A DNA stretch of 64,000 bases from a virus. The stretch lies in the IMG/VR virus record IMGVR_UViG_3300025009_000004, positions 1 through 64,000 of that record. One strand, given 5' to 3'. Position 1 is the first letter of the stretch; each line of letters opens with the position of its first letter. A program made the translations under genes and the position numbers. Positions 2,787-39,098 of the stretch are shown piece after piece. The notes beneath the pieces are model-generated. The model had not been told where the DNA came from and ran no database searches. It was given only the letters and a program-made list of their open reading frames with translations.

Positions 2787-2982
2787 TTACTTAGGCAAGG
2801 CTAAACTTGGCTACATAGACACAACATGTTCTCATTGTCTATGTAAGTTTAAGATCGTCATTAAAAGCAACCCACATACAATTGAAAAGCACTTCTGGGA
2901 AGATTATGAATGCCCTGAGTGCAAGATGGCCGGATTATCTATTTATGCAACAATAGACCCTATCGTGGCGGTGATAAAATGA
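2770..2982 (+). CDS. Zinc-ribbon protein
   Basis: CSHC...CPEC; ATG at 2770 overlaps the upstream gene. Confidence 0.55.
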   Translation: MKKINNYLGKAKLGYIDTTCSHCLCKFKIVIKSNPHTIEKHFWEDYECPECKMAGLSIYATIDPIVAVIK

Positions 2983-3197
2983 ACACATATGCCGTTTATT
3001 TTGATGGACAAGAGGAAACAGCAGTAGAATTAGTTTATGTCGTTTTTCGGTCTCATGCGCACTGGACCACTAGAGCACCACTTGAGTTTGAGAATATTTT
3101 CAAAACAAAAGACGCAGCGAATAAATATGTCAAGAGAAGACAAGAGAATAACCCAGAACTATTTTTTATAGTAGAGCGAAAAGAGGTATTAAAATGA
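2979..3197 (+). CDS. Small phage protein (paralogous family)
   Basis: ATGA-coupled start; MNTYAVY...IFKTKDAA...EVLK. Confidence 0.6.
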   Translation: MNTYAVYFDGQEETAVELVYVVFRSHAHWTTRAPLEFENIFKTKDAANKYVKRRQENNPELFFIVERKEVLK

Positions 3198-3352
3198 AAG
3201 TGCATGTAGTAGAATATTATGACAACGAAGATAGATATATAGAAAGTATCCATGAGACCGAAGAATCAGCGCGAAAATCAATCAACGATATGCCAATTAG
3301 AGACATATATAAATCTGATTATAGTATCGCAGAACATGAGGTATTAAAATGA
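3194..3352 (+). CDS. 52-aa phage protein (paralogous family, not in ORF track)
   Basis: MKVHVVEYYDNEDRYIESIHETEESARK...; GAGG RBS; ATGA coupling. Confidence 0.65.
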   Translation: MKVHVVEYYDNEDRYIESIHETEESARKSINDMPIRDIYKSDYSIAEHEVLK

Positions 3353-3525
3353 AAGTGTATCTCGTGTTTACAAGTTTTTTGGACCATGATTTATATGGAG
3401 TATATGCAAATGAAGAATCGGCAAATAGAGTATTAGCAGAATTGTCACAACCCAGCGAAGTCCCAACTGAACCATCAATAGAAGAGTGGGAAATACAAGA
3501 CCTAATTAGCAAGGAGGCTCAATGA
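3349..3525 (+). CDS. 58-aa phage protein (paralogous family, not in ORF track)
   Basis: MKVYLVFTSFLDHDLYGVYANEESA...; GAGG RBS; ATGA coupling. Confidence 0.65.
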   Translation: MKVYLVFTSFLDHDLYGVYANEESANRVLAELSQPSEVPTEPSIEEWEIQDLISKEAQ

Positions 3526-3893
3526 TACTCTTAACCTTACAAAATGTTCCATATGCCGTCTTTAACAACCAAATAGAATGTAATAAATGGATTAAAGATA
3601 ACGATAATCGTATTGTATCATTTGATACATTTGAGATACAACATATCGATACAATGGATGCCACAGTTGATTATTGGATTGATAAACTTGTCAAACTATA
3701 CGACTTTAAATGGTCAACCAAATATGATATTGACTCCAACCAATACTTCATCAACAACGAAATTAAAATGAAAAGAGATAGCATACAACATCGGCGCTTA
3801 CTTAAATTCTGGTTAGAAAACGTATACAAAGTTCCTGCATCTATTTGCATAATATTTCATACGGAGGACGATGACAATGAGCAAACAAATTAA
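3522..3893 (+). CDS. Hypothetical protein
   Basis: AGGAGG RBS; coupled ORF. Confidence 0.65.
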   Translation: MILLTLQNVPYAVFNNQIECNKWIKDNDNRIVSFDTFEIQHIDTMDATVDYWIDKLVKLYDFKWSTKYDIDSNQYFINNEIKMKRDSIQHRRLLKFWLENVYKVPASICIIFHTEDDDNEQTN

Positions 3894-4158
3894 AGCTGAT
3901 CTGGAAATACCCGTTATAAGAGTTGGTCAAATCTACAAGCACTACAAAGGTTCATGTTATGAAGTAATGGCGTTCGCTACACATTCAGAAACAAACGAAC
4001 CTGTTGTTATTTATCGTCGCGCTGATATGTCAGAACCTAGATTATGGTGCCGGCCACAAAGCATGTGGTTTGAAACCGTTAATGTAGATGGCAAAACTAA
4101 ATTTAGATTTACTTTGGCTACAATACCAGAAATGGAGAGTTTAAATGCCAATATTTGA
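3871..4158 (+). CDS. DUF1653-domain protein
   Basis: GQIYKHYKG..YEV..FATHSET.EP.VIYR....LWCRP..MWFE. Confidence 0.85.
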   Translation: MTMSKQIKADLEIPVIRVGQIYKHYKGSCYEVMAFATHSETNEPVVIYRRADMSEPRLWCRPQSMWFETVNVDGKTKFRFTLATIPEMESLNANI

Positions 4159-4342
4159 ATACACTTGCCCCATCTGTAAATCAAAGAAAGAAAAACTTGT
4201 TCAATCTAAGTCAGAGCATATCTTCTGTGATAAATGTATATCATCCGAAATGACCAGAGAAGAAGTTTATATAGTCAATGATGTTATACATGGATATTGC
4301 TACAAAAATGAAAACATGAAGAATAGAGTTAGAAAGGATTAG
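4145..4342 (+). CDS. FmdB-like zinc-ribbon protein
   Basis: MPIFEYTCPIC...CDKC. Confidence 0.75.
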   Translation: MPIFEYTCPICKSKKEKLVQSKSEHIFCDKCISSEMTREEVYIVNDVIHGYCYKNENMKNRVRKD

Positions 4343-4985: not shown

Positions 4986-5432
4986 ATGATACATAAAATA
5001 GAATATATAAAAGGTTCAATCTTTGACGCCATTCATGCCGATTATAAGGTATGTCCAGTAAATAAGGTTGGAGTTATGGGCGCTGGATTGGCCAAAGAGT
5101 TTAAAAAAAGAATGCCACAATGTGAACTTTTATACTTAATATACCTATCGTTGTTAAAAGAAACTGGATTCATTCTCGGAGATCTAAAAGACGGAGTTAT
5201 TCATCTGGCCACAAAAGACCATTGGAAACAAGATTCAGAAATCGATTTTATCCAGAATAATTTAAAAAATCTAGTAGAAACTCTAAATCTATCTTTTAAT
5301 GATAAAATAAGAATTGCATTTCCAAAACTTGGGTGTGGTTGTGGAAAAATTAAATGGGAAGATATTAAGCCAACAATGGAAAAAGAGCTTTACAAGTTAA
5401 ATGATAATTTTATAATAGAAATATATTTATAA
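4986..5432 (+). CDS. Macro domain (ADP-ribose processing, DarG-like) protein
   Basis: KGSIF, PVN..GVMGAGLAKEFK, TKDHW, IAFPKLGCGCG. Confidence 0.88.
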   Translation: MIHKIEYIKGSIFDAIHADYKVCPVNKVGVMGAGLAKEFKKRMPQCELLYLIYLSLLKETGFILGDLKDGVIHLATKDHWKQDSEIDFIQNNLKNLVETLNLSFNDKIRIAFPKLGCGCGKIKWEDIKPTMEKELYKLNDNFIIEIYL

Positions 5433-11827: not shown

Positions 11828-12691
11828 ATGAGGCATAATTTATGGTTAAACGAAAAAGCAGTAGTAAAAGATTTATCCGAATGCAACAAGCAATATAAAT
11901 CTATTCGTAAAAAGATCGATAGAATACGCACTGAAATAGTCAAGCTACACGATTATATTATTGGAGAGCATTTTGATAAACTATCAGCAATTCAAGCATA
12001 TAATTTAGGCATGATTGGATGTAAGTTTATAAGCAGAGATTTCCCTGGAGATTTTTTGTATAGAGATACTCGCAGAGTGCTACAAAGATATTGTACAAAT
12101 AAAAAAAGAATTGGAAGGGAAAAAGAAATGAGTTTTGATGACAGAGAAGAGTTAATCAAAATATATGGCAGTTTAGATAATGTTCCTCACCAAAAACTTA
12201 TTTTCCTTGATGTTGATGGAGTCCTAAACAACGATATCGATGAAATGGCATGGGAATCTGCTACTCCCATATCTCAGATTAATGTATCAGCGCTTAACGA
12301 GATTATAGATAAACTTACAGAAGAAATAGGAAGCATATCTTTAGTCTTATCATCGACCTGGCGTCTAAGATATTTTAACAAAGAAAACCCTATTGAACAG
12401 ATAAACAAAGATTTTAGCAGCTATGGCATTAAGGCGCCGTTTATAGGCTATACTTCTAGATTTATTGATTGCACGGGTAATAGCTATTATCGTGGCTATG
12501 AAATAGACCATTGGATTAAAAAGAATTGCAATAATTCTTTTGTTTCCTTTGTAATAATAGATGATGATAGTGATATGGCTTCACTGAAGAATCAACATTT
12601 TCGAACAATGCCAGACCTTGGCTTACAGACATACCACTATGATTCGATACTACTAAGAATGAGAGATAAGTTTCCTATTTGTATAAAATAA
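11828..12691 (+). CDS. HAD-superfamily phosphatase (HAD_SAK_2-like), possible internal start at 12128
   Basis: IFLDVDGVLN, VLSSTWR, RGYEI..W, FVIIDDDSDM. Confidence 0.8.
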   Translation: MRHNLWLNEKAVVKDLSECNKQYKSIRKKIDRIRTEIVKLHDYIIGEHFDKLSAIQAYNLGMIGCKFISRDFPGDFLYRDTRRVLQRYCTNKKRIGREKEMSFDDREELIKIYGSLDNVPHQKLIFLDVDGVLNNDIDEMAWESATPISQINVSALNEIIDKLTEEIGSISLVLSSTWRLRYFNKENPIEQINKDFSSYGIKAPFIGYTSRFIDCTGNSYYRGYEIDHWIKKNCNNSFVSFVIIDDDSDMASLKNQHFRTMPDLGLQTYHYDSILLRMRDKFPICIK

Positions 12692-12720
12692 AAATATTTC
12701 ATTTTATTTTCTATTTATTC

Positions 12721-12869
12721 TTGACATCATCATATTTATTTGTTAGGATTATATTGATGACTGATCTCCATTTGTTTATTCCGGTCACTGAATCTAATTC
12801 TTGGATTTCATTGATGTACACGGCCTCCTAAGCAGAAAAGCCTTACTTCGCTCCTTGTAAGGCTTTTTT
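12721..12869 (+). ncRNA. Candidate ~110-nt small RNA (promoter to terminator)
   Basis: TTGACA-N17-TAGGAT at 12721-12749; terminator AAAAGCCTTAC/GTAAGGCTTTT at 12836-12869; no RBS-led ORF between them. Confidence 0.5.
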
Positions 12870-13844
12870 GTTATTTATACCACTTATTATCATTATCTCT
12901 TTTTCCTATACACCTACTATACGCTACCTATCATTATCCTTTTAAATAAGGCCATTTAAGAGCATTACGCTATCAGATTCATCTATTTCCCTTACACTAC
13001 CTATGCACTACCCTATACACCGTGTATAGCGTTTTATGAGTGTTATTACGAGCATATCGCTATGTATTGACCCCAATTATCGTTAACCATCCCTTCGCAT
13101 TAATACGCTTCGCTTTATTAATGCTTCGGCATAATTAACGATAATTACCCCATGCATGTTATGAGAGTTTAGATTGTTTAGAAGAAATAGGTGTCGGTTT
13201 CACCCAACACTTATTTTTTAAAAGTGTTGGGTTGAGCATACATACTATATAAGTAACAGTTACATTATGTAACGCTCTATATCTTGAGCAGAATTTATAG
13301 ATACAACCCTGCCCTATTTACAACAGTTTTAATGTAACGGAATGTCGATGACTTACGGTTACATAGATATGTAATATGTTATTGTAACACTTAAGAGATA
13401 TGCGGAATAATATTACGAAAAGCGTTATGGCCGTAGGGTGGACTAAGAAAGTGGTCCACTTATATATGTGTACTGTTAAGCCCTCATGCCCCTCCAAAAA
13501 ATTCACCTATTACAAACTTCCCTGCTGATATCCCTTTATGCACAGTGTTTTTCAGAACATCGAAATATTCAAACATACTAATAATGCAGCATTTAAGCCA
13601 TGTTTCAATGATATACGATGATAACACTTGATATCATTGGCCTCTCTCGTTATGATATAAATATTCTCAAATTGATACAAATATGGTCAAGCGGTCTTAA
13701 CGTAAAATTACTACCATTATATATTGATTGTATATTATATATATACATTATATAATATACTAATATTCTGATAATACTATATTTAATCTATATTCTGAGA
13801 TTAATCTATAAATTATAAATATTCTATTTAATTTAAAAAATAAC

Positions 13845-13873
13845 TTGATATATGCTATCTTGTGTGGTATAAT
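13845..13873 (+). promoter_or_regulatory. Strong sigma70/sigmaA-type promoter
   Basis: TTGATA-N17-TATAAT, TG extension, AT-rich UP element. Confidence 0.8.
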
Positions 13874-13916
13874 TAAATTAGTTAAGGGTTAATAAATAAG
13901 AAAGGTGGTAAAAAAA

Positions 13917-14111
13917 ATGGTCACTAAAATATCTAAAATGATTGATAGGGATATGATGAGTAATAGCAATAATTCAAAAAACAATCCATTTAACAAATTC
14001 AATCATAATCAATCTAGTAATAACAATCAGTCTAACAACTCTAAAAATCATAATCAATCTAAAAAATCATTTAAAGATATTTTACAAGAAAAAATTAATC
14101 AATTAAAATAG
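13917..14111 (+). CDS. Asn/Ser-rich microprotein
   Basis: AAAGGTGG RBS; C-terminal helix SFKDILQEKINQLK. Confidence 0.6.
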   Translation: MVTKISKMIDRDMMSNSNNSKNNPFNKFNHNQSSNNNQSNNSKNHNQSKKSFKDILQEKINQLK

Positions 14112-14151
14112 TTTATAGGTATCTATAAAAACCTAAAATTTACATTGGAGT

Positions 14152-14718
14152 GTGGATATTATGAAATTAAACTATCAAGAGAAAAAATCAGTAGCGGTTA
14201 ACGAATCGGTCGAAGTAAATTTAACGGCGGGTTTATTAAAGGAAATTATGTCAAAAGTAGATTTACGAATCAAGTCAATTAACGAGGACAAAAATTTAAC
14301 AGTAGAGGAAAAAACAAAGCGAATTGAATCGGTAACGGTCGAATCGTTTACAAAACGATTGATACAAGACATACACAATGCTATTATATCGACCGTACTA
14401 TTAAGCGATAAATCACTCGAAATTAACGGTAAATTGATTAATACCGATAAAAAGCGGATCAATGGCAAGTCAATAATATCGGATATAATAGCATTTACTC
14501 CTGAAATTAACGAATATTTATTAACGGGGCGTGTTACCATAGACGGTAAAAAATTAATGATTCGCAACACACAATACATAATCAGGATCGAAGAGAAAAG
14601 CACTATATGTCATGAATTTATTGATATTAAATCGTTTAATTCGCTTAATAAAGCCGATAAGTTATCAATCGGAAAATCAAAATTTTTTAAGTTTAAAGGT
14701 TATATAATCAATCAGTAG
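14152..14718 (+). CDS. Hypothetical protein
   Basis: 188-aa ORF, GGAG RBS, followed by a terminator. Confidence 0.7.
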   Translation: MDIMKLNYQEKKSVAVNESVEVNLTAGLLKEIMSKVDLRIKSINEDKNLTVEEKTKRIESVTVESFTKRLIQDIHNAIISTVLLSDKSLEINGKLINTDKKRINGKSIISDIIAFTPEINEYLLTGRVTIDGKKLMIRNTQYIIRIEEKSTICHEFIDIKSFNSLNKADKLSIGKSKFFKFKGYIINQ

Positions 14719-14729
14719 TTACTATACCC

Positions 14730-14769
14730 GCCGGCGAATCAATGAAAAACGATTCGACCGGCTTTTATT
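14730..14769 (+). terminator. Intrinsic terminator
   Basis: GCCGGCGAATC/GATTCG-A-CCGGC stem followed by TTTT. Confidence 0.65.
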
Positions 14770-15189
14770 CAATCCATTCTATTTTTGATCTTTAAAAACA
14801 TTTTAATAATACTTTTTATACTCCGATTCAAGGTTAATTTAATTGATTCGTTATTCAGCGAATCAGGCAAAATTAAATTAACTAAAAAATAGTATATATT
14901 CATATATTAAGCGAATCATTTAACTTTATAGGTATTATTATTAATAAGCCGATTCTATACCGTTATTAAACGATATAGCGGTAAAATTGATTGATTATAA
15001 CTATATGGCAGTAAATCAATATTGACTTAATAAGATTTACAATTAAAAAGTATAATCAATAAAAGATTATAAGATTCGTTATAATACCATTAAAAAGCGA
15101 ATCAATCAAAAATATAATCATAAAACAATTATTGAATCGGATTAAATGTAATAAATAAGCAATTCAAAAAGCAGCAAAAACCAGGTTTT

Positions 15190-15820
15190 TGTAGCAGATT
15201 GACTATGCTTAAAAAGTATAGTAAAAATTGCAAGTAAATCGAAATAACCACGATAAGAGTTATTGCTTGTAAGTGGACGATCTAAAGTAGATGAGCGAAA
15301 TAAACCATATATCAAATATGCTAGACTGACCTGCGTTATTTGACTAATGATATATGGTTTATGTTGTGTTATCGAGCACAAACGATCCTCTGGACGGCTG
15401 AGTGAATCCGCCTGGACGATACGGATGCGGCATATCAGTGGAAGACTGATAGACGATGTATTTATCAATGCACTTCAATGAAGCCAGTAGATAACATAAT
15501 TGATAGACGGTGATATTTATATCACTTGATATGTCTATCATAGTGAAGACCGCGATATATGCGGCATTGGTTGGATATGTCGACCATAATAATGGCAACA
15601 CCTGACGGTGACCATAAGAATGGACATAGATGATAGCGGGCATACCAATCCGGTCAAGCTCAGACCGTAACATGTGAGCAATATTCCACATATAGACCGC
15701 ATTGACAATGTGGCTATGTGTGCTGCATAAGACCCAATCGTTAGGATTATGCAGATAAGATAAAATAACGACGGAGACCCGACCGTCATTACAGAAATGT
15801 AGTGGCGGTCGTTTTATTTA
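15190..15820 (+). ncRNA. Candidate large multi-hairpin ncRNA or structured leader
   Basis: At least ten consecutive hairpins including a perfect 15-bp stem (15300-15314/15348-15362); G-U pairs favour the + strand; ends in a GAAA-loop terminator-like hairpin (15780-15819). Confidence 0.6.
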
Positions 15821-16035
15821 GACCAATAAATATAATGGAGGTTTATTATGATTATAGTAAATGGGATTGCTGTATTTCTTACTCTTCATGATTCCATATC
15901 ATTGGTAACACTTAACAACTATAATAATTTCATCGAAGACTGCCCTGACGATCCTGCGATATATGGCGTCCTAGTCTGTGGCGTTGTTGAAACAATTAGA
16001 TCAAACAACACTCTTGTATCTGAGTTACAGATCGC

Positions 16036-16176
16036 ATGGTAAAACCAATTCATCAGATCGTAAGACTAATCGACCAGCCTTATAGACCTATTAAGCAAAT
16101 AGACAAGGTCAAGACGGCCACTCAACCGTCTAATTTTGAGGAACATCTTCAGAGAGCCATCGCTAAATTAAAGTAG
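16036..16176 (+). CDS. 46-aa microprotein resembling the 13917-14111 protein (not in ORF track)
   Basis: MVKPIHQIVRL...SNFEEHLQRAIAKLK. Confidence 0.5.
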   Translation: MVKPIHQIVRLIDQPYRPIKQIDKVKTATQPSNFEEHLQRAIAKLK

Positions 16177-18301
16177 CGGTGGCTTTTAATTTAAAGGAGG
16201 AATAGTTATGTTAAATCTTAGATCAAGTAAAGTCATTGAGGTAACAGACATTAATACAGGCGAAATTTTTCAAATGTCAAATTCAGTAGATGCTCGCACA
16301 ATAATCCTTCGCGCATTTGAACAAGGTCATGAAATATATATCACAAGAAAGGAGGCATAATTATGACAAAATTAGAGGCCATTAAGATATTTAAGAAATA
16401 TGGGATTCTTAACGACATCTTAATGGAGCCACACCACTCCTCCGACTTGGCAGATAGCGCAAAGACAATTATAAAAAAAGCAAACGCGAAGGAGGCGTAA
16501 TCATGAATAAATATATGGCATACGTTTTGAGACATAATCCCGTCTATAAGTACAGACAGGCGATGGCACAGGCAATGTACAACAGAGACTAGGAGGCATT
16601 TATATGTTCACATACTGCCCATTTTGCGGCGAACATAACTGTATCAAAACAAGTAACGAAGACTATCGCATTCTCTATGAGTGCAGACATTGCGATGCCG
16701 CCTGGTATCGCGTTATTAAGGAGAAGTAATATGGAAGCAATATGGCTAAACAAATCCGAATTATATGACAAACTTAAAGAATTAACCGGCTATTCAGGAA
16801 CTAAAATCAGAGTATCAGTCTCTGATGTCCCGCGCACATTACGCTCCTATTGGGATAACGGCTCAAGAACAGGCTTCTCATGCTACGACATGGAAGGCGA
16901 GTTAATCGCTATCGATGTCCAGACAGCACCTGAGCCTTTTGGTAAATCAGTGCCTCCATATATTCCTTCGCCTGATAAGTTTCTTGTCGAGCATGTCACA
17001 TATAACGGCAAAGATTTAGGTCTGCACATTTATCTACACCCACAGCATTTTTTGGTCAAGATGTTACCTATCGAAAAACCTGAAATCAGTAAAAACGAGT
17101 TATTCGTTCTCGTAACGATATGTTCTCTTAAGTCGTTTGCAAGGGCAGACGAGTATCGTGAGGCAGGATTTAAGACTGCCGAAATCGATAAAATTAAAGA
17201 GATTCTATTTCAGCGTGGCTTTATAAATAAGGCCGGCGCTATTACACCGTCAGGCCGTAATGTTGTCGCAACTGCGTTTGATTCGCATTGCGACAGACAG
17301 TCATGGAAGTGGAATTTTAAGAAAGAAAGCGTTATAGATATCACAAAGGAGGCATAATGTTAGCGTTAATTGTTGGACTTATGTTCATAGTGTTAGGTTT
17401 ACTTTACGTTTCATTAGAGGCAACATTCAGATAGGAGAAGAATATGATTAAAATTATAAACCCCAACCAATCACATCCAGAGATAAAACATCTTGAGTCT
17501 GGCGCTACATTCCAGTTGCCACATGGCTCTGGTATCGACACCAACTGGACATGGGTAGATGAAGAAGGAGGTTGCTTGTCGTTTCATAACGAATGGCATG
17601 CGCTCGATAATAATGGCTGCTATTGCGGCTGGATTCCTTTTGAAGTTATCGTCAGATATGACCCAGACAAACAGCGTTTCGACTATAGCGTCACCGTTGA
17701 TGATGGCCAAATCCAATCAATCGTTGAAGGCTATGAAGAAACTGTTGACGACAATGGAGATATCGAAACAAATGCGCCTTATCTCGATGATTTAGCAGAT
17801 GTTATCCATTCTGCTATCGAGGGTTGGAACTGGTATCTTCCGACATTTAAAAGGCATAGGCAAATAGCGAAAAATATTAAACAGATAGAATCTTTATTAG
17901 TTGAAACAGCAGTTAATATGTCCCTTGTCAATAAAGAAATGACCATCCAAAAACTTATAGACACCGTTGAAGTATCTGTAAGTAAATCTACGAATGTTGT
18001 CGTTAAAGATGTCATTTGCAATGCATTGTGGCCTATGCTTACAACAATAGCACAGAATAATAAGGAGGAGTAATTATGTTATCAAGAGCAAACCCTTCTC
18101 ATCAGGCGAGAATGATGTTATACGCAAAATTCATAGACACAGCATGTAAAGCGGCAAATGTAACCAACATGATGGACTTACCACAGTCAATCCGTGACAA
18201 ATGCTGGGTAGACGCAGTATTTGAAACCAGCAAATTTGCCACGAATATGCATGCCGGCATACAAATTAGAAACAAATAAAAAATAAATAAAGGAGATTAA
18301 T

Positions 18302-19126
18302 ATGTTAGAAATAAAAAATTGGAATGAAATTAAAAGACTAAGCATCGAGGTTATATCATTTGAATATGACGAAATCATATATACCCGCCATACGAATCCA
18401 GATGGTTCTATTGGTGGTTATGTTGCGGCAACAGCTACGGTTGAAGAAACTGTTTTCGTATATGACAATGCCCGTGTATGTGGCAATGCCCGTGTATGTG
18501 GCAATGCCCGTGTATATGACAATGCCCGTGTATGTGGCAATGCCCGTGTATGTGGCAATGCCCGTGTATATGACAATGCCCGTGTATATGGCAATGCTTA
18601 TGTATATGACAATGCTTATGTATATGGCAATGCTTATGTATCTGGCAATGCTTATGTATATGGCAATGCTTATGTATATGGCAATGCTTGTGTATATGGC
18701 AATGCCCGTGTATGTGGCAATGCCCGTGTATGTGGCAATGCCCGTGTATATGACAATGCCCGTGTATATGGCAATGCCCGTGTATATGGCAATGCCCGTG
18801 TATGTGACAATGCCCGTGTATATGGCAATGCCCACGTATATGACAATGCTTATGTATATGGCAATGCCCGCGTATATGACAATGCCCGTGTATATGGCAA
18901 TGCTTATGTATATGATGGCAAAATTAAAACCATGATAAAAACAATACAAATTTTCAGATATTGCGTTTCGATTACAGAAGAATTTGTATTTATCGGTTGC
19001 CAAAGATTCAAGATAGAGGATATAAAATTGATTACGTATAAGGAGACAAAAGCAATACAGCACGGCATCACGCAAGCACAATTTAGCATATTAAAGAAAA
19101 TGGTCTTGTTAGCAATTAAGTATTAA
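18302..19126 (+). CDS. Hexapeptide-repeat (left-handed beta-helix) phage protein
   Basis: H.NPDGS.GGYVA, 25 NA[RY]V[YC][GD] repeats, C-terminal IGCQ. Confidence 0.85.
   Translation: MLEIKNWNEIKRLSIEVISFEYDEIIYTRHTNPDGSIGGYVAATATVEETVFVYDNARVCGNARVCGNARVYDNARVCGNARVCGNARVYDNARVYGNAYVYDNAYVYGNAYVSGNAYVYGNAYVYGNACVYGNARVCGNARVCGNARVYDNARVYGNARVYGNARVCDNARVYGNAHVYDNAYVYGNARVYDNARVYGNAYVYDGKIKTMIKTIQIFRYCVSITEEFVFIGCQRFKIEDIKLITYKETKAIQHGITQAQFSILKKMVLLAIKY
18467..18916 (+). repeat. 25 x 18-bp coding tandem repeat
   Basis: Unit AATGCCCGTGTATATGGC with variants. Confidence 0.95.
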
Positions 19127-22100
19127 ACAGGAGGAACACATGACTAAAAAAGAAGCACATCAATTATTATTAGACTCTGACCATATACAATATCGCAAAG
19201 GTCGTTACTGTAAATCTGGCATATATACATTATATCATGGCGAATATGAACGCCCAGACTATCAGATTCGCAAAGTTAGAGGCAAAGATGATTGCGAAAT
19301 ATATTGCCGAGTTTATTTCTATTCTGGCACCTTCAACAATGATGTTAATCATGTCCTTAGCAATGATGATATCGCCGCCCTGCGGATATCTGCCATGTAT
19401 ATAAAGGAGAATTACAAATGAACAATAACAACCCGATATGCTCTTATTGTGGTCAAGATTACCATGGAGACACCCGTATCTTTTGTGAAGTATGTCAGAT
19501 GCAAGTATGTATTATGGCATTGAATGGAGGATTACGAAATGAAAAGTGTATTATTAGATATGCGCTTAGACAAATCATCAGATGATTTCATCGAAATATT
19601 GCGTATTACTCAAAACGATCTGGCAAACAAAAGCACGCAGAAACTTGCCCAAATTTATTTAGATTTGATAGATGTATACGATAACGAGCCGGCGCCGTTT
19701 AGCAATAACCAGATGCGTGTTATTAATGCTATTAAAGACCTTGGCTCTGATATATGGTCAACACTTGCACTACGCAAATATAACATGGCCAATTTAGTCG
19801 ATTACGTTGGCGATATCCAAATATTACATGACCATATTATGCAGCATATATCAGATGGCCAAGATGTTAGCGCAATCCTTCGTCGAACGGGACTAACAAC
19901 GGTTCCAGATGACATTGGCTCATTGTTTATTTCAGAATCAGATGACGGCGATATTATTCACCTATTCTCTATATTTGAAACTGTAGCGTATATGAGTGAA
20001 TCGCTAACTGCGCTCGTTATCAATGGAGAATGCACAGATAACTATGACTTTTATTTCCAAGAACAGTCTGAAAACAGACAGAAAGTAATCGAAGATACAT
20101 TTGAAAGGAGCAATGAATATTATGAGCAGTAGAAAAAACAGCGAATCGTATGACCCTGGTTGTCAATCAATCACGATGAGACAGGCCATCAATCGTATCA
20201 AGAAACTATTTCCTAACGATAAGGTTGAAATGGAAGTCAATTATCACGACATATCTGGCTTCGTAACACTACAAGACGGCAGAATACTATACATTAGCGC
20301 ATCTGACGAAAGATATTTCAACGATGTATATTCAAATATGCTCGTTAGGACAGCAAAACATACTAAAGACTGGACTGGCGGGCATAATAACTGGTTCAAC
20401 TTGTTTAAACATAATAGAGAACAGATAATCTCTATGTGCTATTGGAGGGAGGCCAATGTTTGACCGCAAAGATGCCGTATATAAATGCGATTTCTGCCAA
20501 AAAGAATTAATCTACATTCACTATATTTATTCCGAATACAATATGAGATTCCCAAACGAGTTATGTCGTACTTGTTTATCTCGCAGAATACATTTAACAA
20601 CGATAAAAAATAAGAAAAGATTTTGGAGGTCATATGATAACTAATGAAAACTTTGAATTAAAACTTAGAATACTCGCCCAACATCTCGAAACAGAGACAG
20701 ACAGCATATCTACGAATATGGCAGATGACTATCTCGTCTGCACTGATAAAGAAGCAGATGAAGCAGTTAAAGAAGCGGTACTTGATTCATTGTGGGCATT
20801 TAGACCATCGTTCATAGTATCACATATGGCATACAAACCCGAAAATTATCGTGAAAGAGATAGCACTGAAAAAGTACTCGAACATATGCAATTTCATCTT
20901 TGCGAGAGCGCCAACTGTATCGTTAAAAGCATGATAAAAGACATCGACCATTTTGTTGACGATGCGGTATCATCTGATGGTCGGGGCCATTTCTTAGCGC
21001 AATACGATGGAGACGAACATGAAGTGACCGTTGATGGCACTATGTATTTGGTTTATAGGCAAAATTAAAGGGGGTAATATGTCATTAGAAATCAGGCACA
21101 TAGAAGAATGTCCTATCATCCATGGTTTTGAACTAACTCCAGATGAAAAGAAAGATTTCGATTATTGGAAGCCAGATGAACTCGACGAACAGATGTTCGT
21201 TAAATATCGTGGCAATATCTACGATATATCACAATTTATGCGGCTACCCTATGGCATGACAGCAGAGCGCATAAAAGATGGCGCCTTTCATCCTTTCGGC
21301 AGGGAATGGGATTATGGCGGATATCATTCTGATTCATTCTATAGTGGCGTTCTGTGTTTAATGATAGATGATGAAACCGTTAAAATGGCAACATACATGA
21401 GTTAAAGGAGCACCACAATGATTGTATACCTCATAATAAATAAGTCAACAGGCATAATAATAGAGGCACACTTAAATGAGGATAGGTGCAAAGAAAGAAC
21501 ACGAGAATTTAACAAACAAGATAAATTATACTTTTACTTCTATATACACGTAATAGAATAAGGAGGAGTACATATGAGCATAAGAGGCATAATCGAGCGT
21601 AAAGGCAATGGCGATGTGGTAGTTTATAGACATGATCGCATTATCTATCCTAACGGCAATGAAGTTAAAATTAATAACGATCTCTTATTAGCTATCGAAG
21701 AGTTTCGAGCAGATGGCACGACATTTGTTGTAATGTATAAATAAGGAGTAATATGAATTTAAAAACAGAATTAGCAATTAAAGGAATCCTTGCATGTCGG
21801 TGCAAGGATTTAGATTATTCTGGCAAAAGATTTGAGGCAATTGTCCAATTACGCAGATTACATAAAAAACATCAACGTATATGCACAGATCAATGCAATG
21901 GCAAATTCAAATCACAAGAATCATATAACAAAGCAATAAGAAAAGTAGAAGATAAAATGCAACAGATCATAATGGCAGACGTTAGTTTGTCCAGATTATC
22001 AATCGAACATCAATATGACCCAAGGGGCATAACAACACATCTATTTTATAATAATAAATATGAACGCGATGGCCACACAGAAGATTGCAAATACAATATA

Positions 22101-24190
22101 ACAGATGCTTTATTTATATAGGAGGCAATATGAAAATAAAAATTAGCACACATCCTTATGAGGTAGACCATTTACAACGCCATACCCCTTGCCGTCATTG
22201 CAAATACGAATCACGGGGGTTATATTTCTTTAGCTATGTAATGAATCATGGCGATACAATCTGCCCTAAATGCAGAAAGCCAATTACATCTTTCTCAGGG
22301 AATGGGCTGCAATGTTATATCGACTTACAGAAACAATTCTTTGCTGACCTTAAAAAAGCAAAGAAGTCAACAATGTACTTCTATAAGAAGGTGGCTAAAT
22401 GAAAATAGTAGAATTAATTCTTGATAGTTGCGCCCAATGCCCCTTTATCAGAGGGAATAACCCATATTTTTGCCAATTAGTAGAAAGCTGTATAGGCGTC
22501 TTGCAGCCAGTGTTACAAGGCCATCAAGCATTTAGAAAGGATTGTCCTTTAAGAAGCATTCGTATGAACGAGCTTACCGATTTAATGGTTTCACTGTCAG
22601 TAATAAAGAGAGGCAAGAAGTAATGGCATTAATGAATCAAAAGAAATATTTTATCCATTGCATTAGAACAAGCAACATAGTTGCACAGTGTAATGAATGG
22701 AACATTAAACAAGAAAAGAACAAGTTGCCCATTGGCAAGTATATTGTAATGGGCCAAAACGTAGATTATACATTTGAAATAAAAGGAGAATGTTATGGAA
22801 TCGAATGAAAAGAAAACAATAAAAACGCCTAAATGCCCCTATTGTGAATCAAAAGCCTATACATACGAAATGAACTATATTGAAAATGAATCCTGTATAG
22901 TATTGGCGACATGTTCTAACTGTGACAAGGGATTTGATTTAACATTTGAATGCACAGCAATAACAAAAATGGAGGAATAATATGAATTTTGCAGAATTAG
23001 TTGCAGATGGCAGATGCCCAAACAAAAATTGTGATTTAGGTGGAGATATTGAAGAAAAAGCAACACATTATGATGGGAATGGCCATGTAATCATCAGTTG
23101 GGAATGCAATTGTGGAACATGTTGGGATATCGAGTATAAGCCCATTCAAGTTAAAGTAACAGATAAACCTAAAAATTATATACAAATCGAGGAGGAGTAA
23201 TTATGGGAACAAGAGGGCTTTATGGATTTTATAAGAATGGCGAAACCAAAACAGTTTATAATCAATATGATACTTATCCTGACGGACTAGGTGCTGTAAT
23301 GCTAAAGTTTATCAAACATTTACAATCATTCGATGGGCTAAGAAAACTCTTTGACAGGCTAAAAATAGTTAAGGAAGGGAAGAAACCTGGCAAGAAGCAA
23401 TTAGAACATGCACTGTCAATAATGAAACCTGATTTAAACGTATCAAGTCGGAGCATGAATGATTGGTATTGTATACTACGAGAAGCACAGAATAATCCAA
23501 TGGTTTATTCTAACGGACTTAAACTAATTCTTGATTCAACGGATTTTATTAAAGATAGTTTATTCTGCGAATGGGCATATATAATTAATTTAGATAACGA
23601 TACGCTTGAAGTATATGCTGGCGTCAACAAAGAGCATCAAGAAGATAATCGATATATGACTGACACGCCAGATGAAAGCGGCTATTATGCTTGCAAGTTA
23701 ATATCAACATATAATTTAGATATATTGTTATATATTGACGAAGAAACATTTATAAAAGAAGTCAACACCGCAGCCGGCAATGAGGAGGAAGAATAATTAT
23801 GGAGTGCGATATCTGTAGAAATCATGAATGGGTAAGACATTGTAGAACATGTGGTGGCGACTTTTATGATATGTGCATGGAAGGCAACATGGAGCATGAT
23901 GTTTATAGGTGCATGAATGGATGTATGCCCCCAACAATGGAATTATATATGGAAACTATACCAGATGAGGAGGAATAATTGAATATCTACGGCTTATATC
24001 AATATCAAGAACCTATCATACTTAATGGCAAGTTACATTATAAACTAACAATCAAGGGCAAAGATAAAATGTACAAGATTAATGCTAGACCGTCTGGCAC
24101 TCTTGATAAATTAAACAGAAACGATTATATCATGGCCGTCATCGATGATAGCATAGTTAAATCAATAATGGTATTAAAATAGGAGGAGCT

Positions 24191-24932
24191 ATGAACACTT
24201 TATATCAAGAAATCAACAACATATTTAAACAAGGAAGAACACCCAATATGATGAGATTCGATGGCAAGCAGACCGTAATTCTCAGAGAAGATGACTGTTT
24301 CACTGTCAAAATGTGGACAACAAATATCATTCAAGCGCATAAAGATGGCACAGTAATTCTCGATAGCGGCGGATGGTGGAGCGCTCCGACCACAAGAGAT
24401 CGGTTTAATCGTTTTATAAATAAAATAGGCTTTAATTTATTTAAACGAAAAAATCAACCAATACTGTTCGACAATATCATCGGCGCCGAATATCCTTTCT
24501 CTGATGGTCTTATATTAAAAAGAGTTGGTGGGGGGTTATGTCCCTAAAGGACCTGTTTCTACGGCAGATGTTAAGAAAAAAGATAAATTAATTAAATCAA
24601 TTAAAACATATATCAAAGGCTTTTATGAAGCATTTATAGCTAGAAAAATTTCTGCTCCAAGCGGAGGAGATTGCTGGTGCTGTATGGGCATTCCCGATTC
24701 ACAGCACTCTCATCTTTTAGCACATATTAAAGAAAAATATTATGTTCCTTCTCTTTTAAGTAACGCTGCTATTGAACATCGAAGTTCACTCTCTATTTAT
24801 GCTGAACATATTATGGCAACATGGGTAAACGGAAAGTTAGAAGCAGAAAACAATGAGTCAATAATTAAAAATCAGATATTTAAATGCCTAGATAAATATT
24901 TAATGGATAGACTTGTTTATAATAAAAAATAG
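24191..24932 (+). pseudogene. Single gene apparently split by a frameshift at a G6 run (24530-24535)
   Basis: Removing one G fuses ORFs 24191-24547 and 24525-24932 in frame; the second ORF lacks a convincing RBS. Confidence 0.55.
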
Positions 24933-25787
24933 GAGGAATTATGAAAATAGAAAGATATTATACATGCTTTGGAAGAAAGGTTATCGACGCTGGAGGACTT
25001 GGGCTTATTGAGAGCTTAGATAGATTATTAGTTAATATATGGACCTATGCAAATAAAAAGAAATGCGATGGCGTATTGTCACTTAAGTTCAGCAGTTTGC
25101 GATACTATCTAACTGTTGGAGAGATGGAGGCGCCTATGGACATTAAAGAGCGAATGGTTAATAATTTAATGGATTTAGACCAAGAAGAATATCAGTCGCT
25201 CTTTATCGAATTAATCCGTGCAAGTAAAGCAATATATTCAAGAATGAATGTTAGAGAAACATTCGAAATTAACCTTGAACCAACAAGGCAAATGAACGAA
25301 GAAGAATTGCATCGCTTGAACGACTATTATTGCATAACACCAGATTGTCTTAGCACCGATGTAGTATGCCTTAATACAAATGTAGACAATGGCGAAGAGG
25401 TAAACGAATATATATGCAATGAATGTGGCGCCAAATGGTCTTTATGGAAGCAGACAATATCTGGCATAATATTAAAGGAGGGCAAATAATGTTTTTCTTT
25501 GACTATCGCATCTATCATCGAACTTCACATAAAACAAAAACAATAACTAAATTCTCAGAACGATTGCTTGGGCATTACGAGAACATAGCAGAGGCAACGC
25601 AGCAATTTAATGAGATCGTTAAAGATTTCATGAGAAATAAAAGGCATAAGGTAGGCGATGAGCTTGTGTTGAAAAATAACTCTAAAACGATAGGCTCATT
25701 GAAGGTTGATGTAACGATTTATAATCCTGGCGTTAATATAAATACAAACAATATAGTAATTAAGAATAAAAGAAAAGGAGATTTAAT

Positions 25788-26321
25788 ATGAAATATAAAA
25801 CAATTTATTGTGACCCGCCTTGGCCTGAGTTTGGGGGCGGTAAAATTAAGCGAGGCGCAGATAGACATTATCCACTTATGTCAATAAAACAAATCATCAA
25901 CATGAAAGATTTTATCAGCGAAATATCAGAAGATAATTGTCACTTATATATGTGGACAACAAATAATTATCTACCATCAGCATTACAAGTAATAAAAGAA
26001 TGGGGATTTGAATATAAAACAATTATAACATGGCTTAAAGATAGGTTTGGGCTAGGACAATACTATAGAGGCATTACAGAACATTGCTTGTTTGCCGTTA
26101 AAGGAAATATTCCGTATAAAACAGCAGATGGCAAGCGACAACAAGGCATTACAGGACTTACAGCGCCTAGGCAAGAGCATAGTACCAAGCCAGAGATAAT
26201 GAGAGGCATGATAGAAAAAGTAAGTTATCCGCCATATATTGAACTATTTGCAAGACGAAAAGATAGTCAATTATGGCATTATTGGGGAAATGAAATAAAT
26301 AATGATTTAAAGGAGATTTAA
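25788..26321 (+). CDS. MT-A70 family N6-adenine methyltransferase
   Basis: IYCDPPW, HYPLMS, LYMWTTN, WGFEYKT..TWLK, EHCLFA, HSTKP, IELFAR. Confidence 0.92.
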   Translation: MKYKTIYCDPPWPEFGGGKIKRGADRHYPLMSIKQIINMKDFISEISEDNCHLYMWTTNNYLPSALQVIKEWGFEYKTIITWLKDRFGLGQYYRGITEHCLFAVKGNIPYKTADGKRQQGITGLTAPRQEHSTKPEIMRGMIEKVSYPPYIELFARRKDSQLWHYWGNEINNDLKEI

Positions 26322-27025
26322 CATGATAAATTTAACTCAATACTCTAATGAAATAATTTTAGTATGTAATTTAATAATATTCTTTTTAGGGACAAGAATG
26401 CTTTTTATGTTACATAAATTAAAATAATAAAGGAGATTTAATATGATAGATTATTTAGACATCGAATCAGCGCCTTGGGGAGTAGACTGTGTTCAAGTCA
26501 ATCCAAGCATTGATTACATGCCGGAAATGAAAGCAGAAACCATTAAATTTAAAGAAATGCTTGAGAAACGATTTGCTAAACTAATTGATAAAACAGACAT
26601 ATACTTTGTGATAGTAAAGAATCCTCATGATTTTGGAACTTATCTGTCAATTAGAGTTTATTTTCATGATGAGAATAAGAAACAAAGCGATGCAGCATAT
26701 TTTGTTGAAAGTAATTGTCCTGAAACATGGGAGGATGATACAGTATTTGATTGGCCGGTTAAAAAGATATTGGAGAAGGAGAAATAAGCATGGAGAATCA
26801 ACAAGCATACGACCTTTTACATCAGCACATACAAGATATATTAAATACAATTATAGATGTCAGAAAAGCGTATTCTGGAGGAGGGATGAATGTTAAAAAA
26901 GAAAATTATATAACCTTTCGCAATGACAGCGGAGACATAATAGATAAAATAGATGAAATAAAAGAAAAAGCTCAAGAATCGTTACATCTTATGTTTCTGA
27001 TTGACAACAGGGAGGAAAGTAAATA

Positions 27026-27151
27026 ATGAAAGTAAAAATATCAATCGGTAATACTAAAATGGGCAAGATACCAAGCGTATCATTGCCACCTATCAAATCA
27101 TGTGGCAATTGCAAAGATTGTGCGTCTAAATGCTATGCGAATCGAGCATAA
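27026..27151 (+). pseudogene. Truncated Gp88-like (Cys-cluster) phage gene remnant
   Basis: MKVKISIGNTKMGKIPSVSLPPIKSCGNCKDCASKCYANRA then stop. Confidence 0.5.
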
Positions 27152-27344
27152 TGAAATCGAAAACGATATCAAAGGAGAAATAAAATGAAAAAGAAAGAAT
27201 TTATTTCAGGATTCGCCATAGAGAAAATGGTCGCCAAACATTTAGATATTGAGGAAGAATGGATAGTAAGTATAGACATTAGTTTAAACGGGATTCGAGT
27301 TACGTATGATTCTCCAAGCGACGATAACGACTAAAATAAAACAC

Positions 27345-27373
27345 TTGACATATTTATAAAAGTATGATATAAT
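27345..27373 (+). promoter_or_regulatory. Consensus sigma70/sigmaA promoter
   Basis: TTGACA-N17-TATAAT with TG extension. Confidence 0.85.
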
Positions 27374-29535: not shown

Positions 29536-30156
29536 ATGAGAATTTTGGTGGCATGCGAAGAAAGCCAGGCGGTGACCTTAGAATTAAGAGCGCTTGGGCA
29601 TGAAGCATATTCATGCGACCTATTGCCATGCTCAGGCAGTCATCCAGAATGGCATCTGCAACAAGATGTTATTCCGCTATTAGAACAAGAATGGGACATG
29701 ATAATAGCGTTCCCGCCTTGCATTGACCTATGCTCAAGCGGGGCGGCACATTTTGCACAGAAACGCGCTGATGGCCGACAACAAAAATCAATTGATTTCT
29801 TCATGGCTTTTGTTAATGCTAAATGCAAACATATCGCGATAGAGAATCCAATCGGCATCATGTCTTCAATGTATCGAAAACCAGACCAGATAATACAACC
29901 ATGGATGTTTGGCCACATGGAATGTAAATCTACATGTTTATGGCTAAAAGGATTGCCCAAATTAAAAGAAACAGATAATGTTAAAGACGAAATGATGAAA
30001 CTTCCTAAAAACAAGAGAGAAAGAATCCACTATCTTCCTCCAAGTAAAAATAGGTCAGTTCTTAGGTCAAAGACATTCGCTGGCATAGCAAAAGCAATGG
30101 CAATCCAGTGGAGCGAGTATATAAAATCTCTTGACATTAACTCTAAAATATGCTAA
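29536..30156 (+). CDS. Phage DNA cytosine methyltransferase-like protein
   Basis: ILVACEES, SCDL, AFPPC, IENP, RSKTF.GIA.AMA.QW. Confidence 0.8.
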   Translation: MRILVACEESQAVTLELRALGHEAYSCDLLPCSGSHPEWHLQQDVIPLLEQEWDMIIAFPPCIDLCSSGAAHFAQKRADGRQQKSIDFFMAFVNAKCKHIAIENPIGIMSSMYRKPDQIIQPWMFGHMECKSTCLWLKGLPKLKETDNVKDEMMKLPKNKRERIHYLPPSKNRSVLRSKTFAGIAKAMAIQWSEYIKSLDINSKIC

Positions 30157-30159
30157 AAT
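30131..30159 (+). promoter_or_regulatory. Promoter of the rep-like gene
   Basis: TTGACA-N17-TAAAAT with TG extension. Confidence 0.8.
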
Positions 30160-37955: not shown

Positions 37956-39098
37956 ATGAAAAGTTATAAAACAGAAATAAAATTAAATAATGAACAAAAA
38001 GAACAATTTCTAAAAACTATAGGAACTTGTCGATTTGTATATAATCTTTTTATTGATATCAATAAAGAGCGTTATGAATATGGCCAGCCTTTTATGTCTG
38101 GGATGTCTTTTTCAAAATGGCTAAACAGTCAATACATTCCAAATAGTCCAGACAAACAATGGATTAAAGAAGTTTCGAGTAAATCTGTAAAACAAAGCAT
38201 AGTGAATGCAGAGAAAGCATATAAAGCATTCTTAAAAACAAAGAAAGGATTTCCGAGATTTAAAAGTCGTAAAAGCAGCATGAATATGTATTTTGTTAAA
38301 ACAGATAACAAACAACCAATAATTTGTAAGCGACATAAAATAAAAATTCCAACTTTGGGATGGGTTCGACTAAAAGAATATGGATATATCCCTGTTTCCG
38401 AAGATATAACAAGTGGCAATATTTCAATGAAAGCAGGGAGGTTTTATGTTGCCGTTGTAACTCATGAAGAACATAAAATACAGAATAATAATACTAATAC
38501 TGGAATAGGAATTGATCTAGGCATAAAAGAATTAGCCGTACTATCGAATGGCAAGACTTTTAAAAACATTAACAAAACAATAGCCATTAAGAAACTTAAT
38601 AAGAAATTAAAAAGAGAACAGCGCAAACTTTCAAAGAAATATGAAAACAAGAAAAAGGGAGCAACTTTAGGAAGCAACTTTAATAAACAGTTATTAAGGA
38701 TTCGAATAATTTATAAAACTATAACAAACATAAAGCAAGACTATCAGTATAAAGTTGTGAATGAGATAGTGAGAACCAAGCCATCTTATATTACAATTGA
38801 AAATCTTAACATTAAAGGCATGATGAAGAATCGGCATTTATCAAGGGCTATTTCGCAACAAGGGCTTTACGGATTTATTCAAAAATTAAAATTTAAAGCC
38901 TATCTCAACGGAATAGAAATAAGACAGGTTGACAGATTTTACCCATCTTCTAAATTGTGCAGTAATTGTGGCAAAATAAAGAAAGATTTAAATCTTTCAG
39001 ATAGGATTTACAAATGTGAATGTGGGTTAATTATTGACCGTGATTTGAACGCGGCGATTAATTTACAACAAGCAACCGATTATAAGATTGCATGTTAA
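37956..39098 (+). CDS. tnpB: RNA-guided endonuclease TnpB (IS607/IS200-IS605 type)
   Basis: N-terminal GTCRFVYN, RuvC GIDLG / IENL / DRDLNAAINL, zinc finger CSNC..CEC. Confidence 0.95.
   Translation: MKSYKTEIKLNNEQKEQFLKTIGTCRFVYNLFIDINKERYEYGQPFMSGMSFSKWLNSQYIPNSPDKQWIKEVSSKSVKQSIVNAEKAYKAFLKTKKGFPRFKSRKSSMNMYFVKTDNKQPIICKRHKIKIPTLGWVRLKEYGYIPVSEDITSGNISMKAGRFYVAVVTHEEHKIQNNNTNTGIGIDLGIKELAVLSNGKTFKNINKTIAIKKLNKKLKREQRKLSKKYENKKKGATLGSNFNKQLLRIRIIYKTITNIKQDYQYKVVNEIVRTKPSYITIENLNIKGMMKNRHLSRAISQQGLYGFIQKLKFKAYLNGIEIRQVDRFYPSSKLCSNCGKIKKDLNLSDRIYKCECGLIIDRDLNAAINLQQATDYKIAC

Follow-up and report, generated by a model that had tools for sequence, protein, structure and literature searches.

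A candidate structured RNA unit at the head of an early gene array in a large phage

The window analyzed here is a 64,000-nucleotide (nt) stretch of viral DNA (positions 1 to 64,000 of IMG/VR record IMGVR_UViG_3300025009_000004) that is part of a large phage genome. Positions 15294-15819 of this window very probably form a self-contained transcription unit for a highly folded, ~525-nt plus-strand RNA from a family not described before. The unit appears to be composed of a -10-like box, a 5' hairpin, about 12 helices, and a strong intrinsic terminator (Table 1). By analogy with leader RNAs of other mobile elements, its nascent transcript may serve as a cis-acting, antitermination-type leader that sets the extent of read-through at early-gene terminators, the reading that we favor, at a probability of roughly 0.4.

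Boundaries and folding of the RNA unit

A sequence-only reading had placed a multi-hairpin element at 15190-15820. Its 3' end roughly holds, but 15190-15293 lies outside the conserved unit, because a 1679-nt read-derived contig (X17) aligns to the window over exactly 15294-15816, where the two differ at 23 positions and by one gap, and its flanks on both sides are unlike those of the window. Homology to a second full sequence (L001) begins at ~15283-15296; positions 15250-15293 are merely 41% identical to it, and the DNA upstream of the element is unrelated. At the spot of the -10-like hexamer, 5 nt before a shared AGC, the relatives read TAAAAT (L001), TATAAT (the X17 contig), and TAAAAC (L056, a more distant homolog).

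From 15290 to 15825, the plus strand folds with a predicted energy of -170.2 kcal/mol (z = -6.42), and none of 100 shuffled sequences folds as well, which bears out the expectation that the element is more stable than shuffled sequence. The eight hairpins that had been listed are all present, and all 113 pairs of our helix list are standard pairs in the window. The earlier proposal that the RNA is read from the plus strand also stands: over 15190-15825 this strand folds with -194.8 kcal/mol (z = -5.09) versus -168.3 kcal/mol (z = -3.55) for the minus strand. The plus strand is favored because both its energy, by 26 kcal/mol, and its z-score surpass those of its complement, and sequence changes in relatives preserve G.U pairs on this strand.

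The trinucleotide GAC was reported to occur 23 times between 15200 and 15823 versus five times for GTC. This count is correct and is the largest strand asymmetry among trinucleotides in that stretch, and it is reached by none of 2000 dinucleotide-preserving shuffles (mean 10.6). When all 624-nt frames of the 64-kilobase (kb) window are considered, at least 21 copies occur only in those starting at 15201-15501. The copies show no periodic spacing in the element, where Tandem Repeats Finder detects no tandem repeats and ARAGORN detects no tRNA or tmRNA.

The claim that no credible open reading frame (ORF) covers the element agrees with several observations. None of the four ORFs that overlap it has a Pfam match below E 0.04. 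Within one of them, a 110-amino-acid (aa) minus-strand ORF, the 13 substitutions of X17 are distributed 5/4/4 over codon positions 1/2/3, and another variant (X19) carries 17 inserted bases. Thus, the element displays neither a conserved frame nor a third-position bias nor a match to a protein family.

Conservation and covariation

The comparison rests on three distinct full sequences (window, L001, and L056) and on partial variant tables. Among the 55 loci compared, the element is carried by L001, L002, and L049, which are one IMG/VR contig, and by L005, a metagenome contig identical to L001 in this part; L008 shares the terminator only. Four close relatives (L003, L004, L006, and L011) end short of the element's position and are uninformative about its presence. 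A scan of species-representative genomes for the neighbor protein family added L056, a 116.5-kb contig of a metagenome-assembled genome (MAG) from an uncultured bacterium whose neighbor protein has 53% aa identity. Its positions 2876-3347 are homologous to the element (nhmmer E 3.1e-23, with a blastn piece at 78%), fold with z = -3.03, and end in a terminator of the same type; its CCGTCTAT words correspond to AUAGACGG on the RNA strand. Variants X17-X20 are derived from reads, and parts of a run left uncovered were not counted as absence. X19 and X20 are short contigs over parts of the element from wastewater runs that are labeled RNA-Seq cDNA but probably contain DNA, so nothing about expression is drawn from them.

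The family is rare in the collections searched, being represented by one IMG/VR, one JGI, and one MAG contig plus variants in groundwater, soil, and wastewater runs. Positions 14700-15900 have no blastn match ('distant' setting) among 50,697 GenBank phage records. Exact-pattern scans of IMG/VR with three pieces of the element and with a twin-hairpin pattern returned nothing beyond the L001-type contig, and a pattern scan of genome contigs for the element returned nothing. The IMG/VR scan for the terminator core also found none; it missed L001 because that contig differs by one base. A further pattern, three copies of ATAGACGG, was badly chosen and was discarded: its 66 IMG/VR loci are essentially all tandem repeats with none like L056, and the majority have a period divisible by 3 that suggests coding repeats.

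The RNA is better conserved than the neighboring genes. Identity to L001 is 95.6% (438/458) over 15363-15820 and 97.8% over 15363-15500, versus 87.7%, 82.1%, and 79.7% for the next three genes. In a MAFFT alignment of the window, L001, and L056, 89.8% of the cells of the 113-pair helix list can pair, versus 22-41% when partners are slid, although a list derived from the window, one of the aligned sequences, favors this structure. With the same bias, 15 of the 113 pairs are changed on both sides, compared with 5.6 +/- 1.8 in shuffles (none of 500 reaches the observed number) and 2-4 when slid. The predicted fold is therefore supported by covariation in relatives, one of the checks that had been suggested for it. 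Helices 10-14 count for little because the alignment with the 3' half of L056 is poor. On sequence evidence, we regard H1, the core hairpin at 15383-15423, Hc, and the terminator as solid helices.

The read-derived variants are also largely compatible with the minimum free energy (MFE) fold. X17 keeps nine changed pairs (one changed on both sides), breaks three, and has nine changes at unpaired positions; X19 keeps five (two on both sides), breaks two, and has four unpaired changes. The broken pairs (15474, 15580, and 15702) would be unpaired in a model where local hairpins and a 7-nt loop replace long-range pairs of the MFE fold, which is our interpretation of them. One-sided changes, such as C-G to U.G, at 15553, 15592, 15601, 15698, and other positions retain a G.U pair on the plus strand only.

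Architecture of the RNA

The 5' hairpin H1 has five pairs changed on both sides relative to L056 and nine invariant pairs, and 95.6% of its cells are paired. Its stem is kept in L001, X19, and X20, in each of which the apical loop is replaced. Downstream of H1, 12 of the 13 main pairs of P3 are invariant and the remaining one is compensatory (U-A to G.U at 15389/15416). Positions 15364-15455, which include this hairpin, have no differences in X20, a wastewater contig with differing upstream sequence, and none are listed for L001 or X17. An anti-Shine-Dalgarno role for UCCUCU at 15387-15392 was considered and rejected, since L056 has CCGCU there and the motif is not conserved.

The hairpin that begins at 15456 is strengthened by 15456 A>G, 15470 G>A, and 15473 C>T in L001, X17, and X18, which create G-C or G.U and U-A pairs. 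H3 repeats 15447-15500 in tandem in a diverged form, as marked by the 12-nt direct repeat D13 (copies 54 nt apart); it is invariant in L001 and missing from L056. In L056, Hc has the stem CCACA/UGUGG with one compensatory pair and a U at the bulge, and C15553>U in L001, X17, and X18 retains a G.U pair. In the twin hairpins, A15592>G retains a U.G pair, and the 17-nt insertion of X19 falls between the two.

The Pa stem is exchanged as a whole among relatives, from GCUCA/UGAGC in the window to GGUUA/UAACC in X19 and GUGGUUA/UAACCAC in L001; 15659/15678 and 15661/15676 are each changed on both sides in X19. Positions 15663-15667 in Pa could possibly form a pseudoknot with CGGUC at 15651-15655. 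Pb has a C-G to U-A exchange at 15689/15720 in X17, and one-sided changes at 15698, 15711, and 15718 retain pairing. A GAC triloop had been described at 15704. The MFE fold includes this triloop, but two variants have U15702>C, a change more compatible with a loop of 7 nt. This loop (UUGACAA, in the hairpin at 15697-15713) is the only one in the element with the geometry of a tRNA anticodon loop, and mimicry of such loops was dismissed as an explanation. At the position of Pc, L056 has a different hairpin in an unreliable part of the alignment.

The terminator that closes the unit has the features of an intrinsic (Rho-independent) terminator: 14 pairs of which seven are G-C, a GAAA loop, the tail UUUUAUUU, and a predicted energy of -22.0 kcal/mol. 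Near-identical copies are found in L008 (3847-3887) and L056 (3309-3345), and related terminators occur in early regions of other relatives (L056 4332, L010 664, and L009 1223). In L008 (terminator T1) and L013, a covarying stem still carries the GAAA tetraloop at its tip.

Table 1. Positions of the RNA unit, its predicted parts, and adjoining signals in the window
Feature	Coordinates	Strand	Basis or remark
RNA unit, ~525 nt, putative start AGCGAAAU to U-tract	15294..15819	+	X17 match, L001 homology, z -6.42
-10-like hexamer TAAAGT	15283..15288	+	5 nt before first conserved base
H1, 15-base-pair (bp) 5' hairpin with variable apical part	15300..15362	+	compensatory pairs with L056
P3, long irregular hairpin, most conserved core	15376..15428	+	RNAalifold consensus
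Hairpin AUCAGU/ACUGAU	15434..15450	+	MFE and centroid folds; lost in MAFFT alignment with L056
Hairpin with A.C and U.G in the window; stronger in variants	15456..15473	+	variant changes
H3, nested hairpin GAUAGAC/GUCUAUC around GUGAUA/UAUCAC	15502..15539	+	MFE fold
Hc, G[A]CCGC...GCGGC hairpin with bulged A	15548..15565	+	G[A]C hairpin scan, L056 alignment
Twin hairpins G[A]CCAU-AAUA-AUGGC and UG[A]CCAU-AAGA-AUGG[A]CA	15582..15626	+	fold, bulge scan
Pa, 5-bp hairpin, invariant loop start GACCGUAA	15658..15679	+	stem swaps
Pb, 9-bp stem, bulged A15696, 5-bp stem, loop UUGACAA	15687..15722	+	variants
Pc, 8-bp hairpin	15723..15754	+	MFE and centroid folds; invariant in L001
A-rich single-stranded spacer	15755..15779	+	AGAUAAAAUA(A/C)CGA kept in L056
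Intrinsic terminator, 14-bp stem, GAAA loop, U-tract	15780..15819	+	terminator scan
AGACC, Shine-Dalgarno GGAGG, ATG of first early gene	15820..15850	+	sequence
Second terminator, related sequence, after two small genes	16156..16192	+	read from sequence; ribosome-binding site directly after

A recurring AGAC(C/G)G word

A further feature proposed for this RNA was a GAC motif whose A is a single-nucleotide bulge within a stem. Four hairpins with such a G[A]C and a stem of at least 4 bp exist in the window (15548, 15582, 15695, and an alternative register of the terminator) versus 0.29 expected, a number matched in one of 500 shuffles. The bulges reported at 15548, 15582, and 15695 are thus present, as is that of the terminator at 14756, which is visible in the sequence, but the case at 15393 has a stem of only 3 bp and reads equally well as a 1x1 A.C internal loop. 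Bulging of this A is not maintained in relatives. A15696 is G in X17, the equivalent of A15549 is U in the L056 hairpin, and neither L008 (one, matched by 181 of 500 shuffles) nor L013 (none) has more bulged G[A]C hairpins than chance would give. GAC triplets take four of the 22 listed X17 substitutions, close to the ~2.5 expected by chance. As judged from these sequences, the single bulged A is weakened as a candidate recognition unit.

A longer word is more widely shared. AGAC is found nine times in the window RNA (shuffle mean 2.1), eight times in L056 (1.7), and ten times in an RNA-like stretch of L008 (3.0), with none of 1000 shuffles reaching these numbers in each case; a comparable stretch of L013 contains five (2.0 expected; 38 of 1000 shuffles). 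AGAC[CG]G is found four, five, two, and three times in the window, L056, L008, and L013, respectively, versus 0.2-0.4 expected in each. AGAC(C/G)G is therefore enriched in all four related or analogous RNAs, whereas the bulge itself is not shared and both L056 (70 of 1000 shuffles) and L013 (269 of 1000) lack an enrichment of plain GAC. The A of GAC is unpaired at a frequency of 0.70, compared with 0.53 for the other A's, and in most cases the next base after the motif is in a pair. In both the window and L056, AGA is preferentially unpaired and continues into paired bases, so the word appears to mark the 5' foot of helices.

The positions of these words are not fixed. In L001, X19, and X20, each replacement of the H1 apical loop brings new GAC(C/G)G words, and L056 has five AGACG words within 95 nt at positions that do not align with those of the window. 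The four densest 150-nt frames for AGAC in the whole window all lie within 15426-16675. On the sense strand of the whole window, AGAC outnumbers GTCT (189 vs 110), so part of the bias is general. In the window, L008, L013, and L056, genes downstream of such terminators also have an AGAC(C) 7-20 nt ahead of their Shine-Dalgarno sequence.

Two clusters of similar words lie in or beside genes. Positions 16043-16130 contain five AGAC/CGAC words in ~75 nt inside a 46-aa ORF (16036-16176) before the second terminator, and the protein of this ORF is kept in L001 (78%), L008 (64%), and L009 (61%). In L008, about eight (C)AGACC words at 3425-3520 extend from the last part of a 172-aa gene across its 3' untranslated region, directly before a terminator.

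Gene layout and positional analogs

The U-tract of the unit's terminator is separated from the ATG of the first early gene by 28 nt, which leaves no room for a separate promoter. No strong plus-strand promoter was found in 15820-27345; the next ones are at 27345 and 30131. These are the two best sigma-70-type promoters in the 20 kb downstream (27345-27373, 12/12; 30131-30159, 11/12), both have a TG extension, and they may start later transcription units. A weak match to model R1 (E 0.1), which represents the 3' domain and was built from two sequences, spans the second terminator (16046-16195); outside the family, this model matches the terminator type only.

The window, L001, L056, and the X17 contig share the position of the element at the head of an array of small genes. 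Two further phages have a candidate RNA in a similar place. In L008, whose neighbor protein is 63% identical, a noncoding, RNA-like stretch occupies 2090-2885 (z = -6.40), and in L013, with a neighbor protein 44% identical, one occupies 3780-4275 (z = -4.25). Both follow a large AT-rich, gene-poor region, precede a small-gene array, and have a GAAA-tipped terminator at their end. Shared 8-mers and model R1 do not demonstrate homology to the window RNA: L013 shares eight 8-mers versus ~4.6 expected, which is at chance level, and L008 shares 16 versus ~7 expected, mostly GAC words and the terminator. We therefore describe these RNAs as positional analogs.

The gene-free, AT-rich regions of ~2 kb that precede the structured RNAs are at 160-2090 in L008 and 393-2542 in L013, and a gene-poor zone of 2-3 kb at the head of the early genes thus seems to be common to these phages. 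L056 has a second G+C-rich, hairpin-rich noncoding segment of ~340 nt (2525-2870) that has no Rfam match. It sits between a 103-aa gene with a perfect TTGACA-17-TATAAT promoter (2131-2160) and the RNA homolog.

Possible functions of the RNA

The gene layout suggests how a read-through leader could operate. The unit lies at the head of a long rightward gene array whose first genes appear to have no promoter of their own, and because of this, polymerase would have to transcribe the whole RNA and pass both terminators to express the early genes, encountering the second, related terminator 340 nt after the first. The nascent RNA would act in cis on the transcribing polymerase and set the level of read-through at both sites, and transcripts that end at the terminator would build up as a stable RNA with protected ends. 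The fixed position of the RNA in relatives and positional analogs, and the existence of an RNA-only antiterminator of this size (canT), speak for this reading. As in RNA-only antiterminators, the RNA would be located between a promoter, here putative, and the terminators to be suppressed within the same unit.

Several observations weigh against this cis-acting leader. The -10-like box has no convincing -35 element, for which reason we treat the promoter as putative, and it is absent from the list of a consensus promoter scan. Beyond the two terminators at the head, no strong plus-strand terminator was found in the downstream 20 kb, so long-range processive antitermination is not obviously needed. 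No near-isoenergetic anti-terminator fold was found; when a terminator arm is made to pair with any GACGG or GACCG copy, the fold loses stability by +5.4 to +21 kcal/mol, and X17 carries a mutation in the best 7-nt candidate (15603-15609). A cassette-like unit that moves between flanks fits a stand-alone RNA gene equally well, and a cis mechanism leaves the enrichment of AGAC(C/G)G unexplained.

This enrichment is the starting point for a different view, in which the unit is the gene of an abundant, stand-alone early RNA. Acting in trans as a platform with many binding sites, either sponge or scaffold, this RNA would engage a host or phage protein that recognizes AGAC(C/G)G where single strand meets helix at hairpin feet. 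This is the main alternative to the cis leader; the sequence-only reading had proposed both, as a decoy RNA and as a put-like antitermination leader. We consider the trans platform somewhat unlikely. The excess of AGAC and AGAC[CG]G over shuffles in the window, L056, L008, and L013, the turnover of word positions at kept density in the replaced H1 loops and L056, and the preferentially unpaired A with a paired base after the motif would all be expected of such a platform. The unit is cassette-like, with its own -10-like box, a terminator, and hairpins at both ends, and AGAC(C) before the Shine-Dalgarno sequences of post-terminator genes would suit regulated targets. However, its partner protein is neither known nor predictable, the sites are individually no better conserved than the rest of the RNA in X17, and the bulged A is replaced in both X17 and L056. 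Plain GAC is not in excess in L056 or L013, some copies of the word may be remnants of internal duplications (repeats D10 and D13), and AGAC exceeds GTCT throughout the window. The cis and trans readings are not mutually exclusive, and they could be combined in a proposal that we regard as unlikely: the window RNA, its L056 homolog, and the L008 and L013 RNAs would constitute one new class, defined by its position as the first early rightward product, its type of GAAA-tipped terminator, and arrays of AGAC(C/G)G at hairpin feet, and its words would recruit or titrate a host transcription or RNA-binding factor, thereby both licensing read-through of the phage's terminators and disarming that factor.

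Three other explanations are less probable. The RNA could be an 'ornate' molecule of the GOLLD/ROOL kind that self-assembles into an RNA-only particle, with bulged adenosines and the GAAA loop making tertiary or quaternary contacts. Its size, phage origin, many helices, several single bulged A's, and lack of an evident protein partner are in keeping with this idea, as is the retention of the GAAA tetraloop on a covarying stem, and GOLLD and ROOL are phage or prophage RNAs joined by A-minor contacts and kissing loops (PMC12286853). It is nevertheless improbable, since no Rfam model matched even at E<=10, the predicted fold is mostly simple hairpins in a row with one possible pseudoknot, no covariation is available in the loops, and the tRNA array is 13 kb away, whereas PMC12286853 describes GOLLD and ROOL as often adjoining tRNA islands. 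Quite improbable is a riboswitch-like attenuator in which GAC(C/G)G boxes compete with the terminator arms upon binding of a ligand or factor. GACGG does complement CCGUC of the 5' arm and GACCG does complement CGGUC of the 3' arm, with four and three copies upstream, respectively, but each forced alternative carries the energetic cost given above, the longest candidate is mutated in X17, 525 nt far exceeds known riboswitches, and Rfam yields no riboswitch or T-box match. We find it hard to credit that the element acts as DNA, for example as initiator iterons or as a cluster of primase or packaging sites by the AT-rich, GAATC-studded upstream region. It does adjoin a region of 22% G+C with repeated motifs and its words favor one strand, but compensatory and G.U-preserving changes follow RNA pairing on the plus strand, the words are irregularly spaced and not conserved in position, and the unit ends in a terminator.

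The clean boundaries, covariation, recurring word, and fixed position of the unit make a concrete test of terminator read-through in cis and in trans possible. If the RNA is an RNA-only antiterminator, large virulent phages of environmental anaerobes would join lambdoid phages and conjugative elements as users of this mechanism. A sponge function would imply a host factor, so far unknown, that binds AGAC and has to be neutralized by phages early.

Relation to known RNAs

Large structured phage RNAs are few, and to our knowledge none has a known function. The impression that the element resembles no recognized RNA class is confirmed by Rfam 15, where it has no match at the gathering threshold and only three matches to snoRNA models (E 3.4-4.2) at E<=10, and so none to GOLLD, ROOL, riboswitches, T-box, 6S, tmRNA, group I/II introns, or CsrB/Rsm. 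Nothing was found with Rfam 15 in L008, L013, the other loci searched, or L056, and the literature searched contained no description of the element's RNA. We conclude that it very probably represents a new structured RNA family outside any Rfam family.

In its general description, the unit would be most like put of HK022, canT of Tn916, EAR of B. subtilis, and conAn2 of pLS20, which are likewise structured nascent RNAs at the start of a mobile-element unit and before intrinsic terminators. HK022 put is much smaller than the ~525-nt unit. The unit differs from put-type elements in having a strong terminator of its own as its 3' end and only two terminators evident downstream. As described in PMC11658703, canT is a 452-nt RNA region with an active 341-nt fragment that lets polymerase bypass a terminator, and it is thus similar in size to the unit.

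Our RNA shares with GOLLD and ROOL (PMC12286853) that it is phage encoded, highly structured, of comparable length (500-800 nt), and without known function. It differs in its lack of an Rfam match, its distance from the tRNA array, its serial hairpins, and its location at the head of early genes. The resemblance is therefore limited to being a large phage RNA of unknown function, and in operation the unit would be most like put/canT leaders or sponge RNAs.

CsrB and RsmZ sponge RNAs expose many copies of a short word (GGA) at hairpins. The unit may be similar in having many words, apparently exposed at hairpins, whose positions turn over between relatives while their density is kept; AGAC is fourfold enriched with a preferentially unpaired A, but the sites are not individually conserved. 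It is unlike these sponges in that its word is AGAC(C/G)G and not GGA, its ~9 copies per 525 nt are a lower density, it has no known partner, and it matches no Rfam model.

Phage context

The phage encodes a DnaE-type DNA polymerase, an NrdD-like reductase, a helicase, a Macro domain protein, a GIY-YIG/NUMOD3 endonuclease, and a HAD domain of RNA-repair proteins. From ~8.8 kb to 63.4 kb, the plus strand holds nearly all long ORFs. The element is at the right end of a gene-poor stretch, with a single plus-strand ORF of at least 60 codons (14152-14718) in 12692-15847. Near-identical DNA occurs in groundwater, soil, and sediment metagenomes (20 of the 21 runs listed, from 10 studies).

Just upstream of the element, 14203-15138 is AT rich (22% G+C) and contains repeated GCGAATCA/GATTCG words as well as promoter-like sites at 15027 (TTAATA-18-TATAAT) and 15090 (TTAAAA-17-TATAAT). 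This region could harbor early promoters, an operator array, or an origin.

The tRNA array is located at 1284-1970, 13 kb from the element. For one member (1449-1531), the tRNA-Sec model of Rfam gives 50.6 bits, more than its gathering threshold of 47 bits, but this member may merely be a Ser/Leu-type tRNA with a long variable arm. A RAGATH-18 RNA (64.5 bits) is present at 39143-39203, between ORFs 37956-39098 and 39250-40371. The HAD domain, of the type found in 'Swiss Army Knife' RNA-repair proteins, is encoded at 11828-12691 (E 6e-20) and the Macro-domain protein at 4986-5432 (E 3e-8); together with the tRNA array, they hint at countermeasures against RNA-targeting or ADP-ribosylating defenses.

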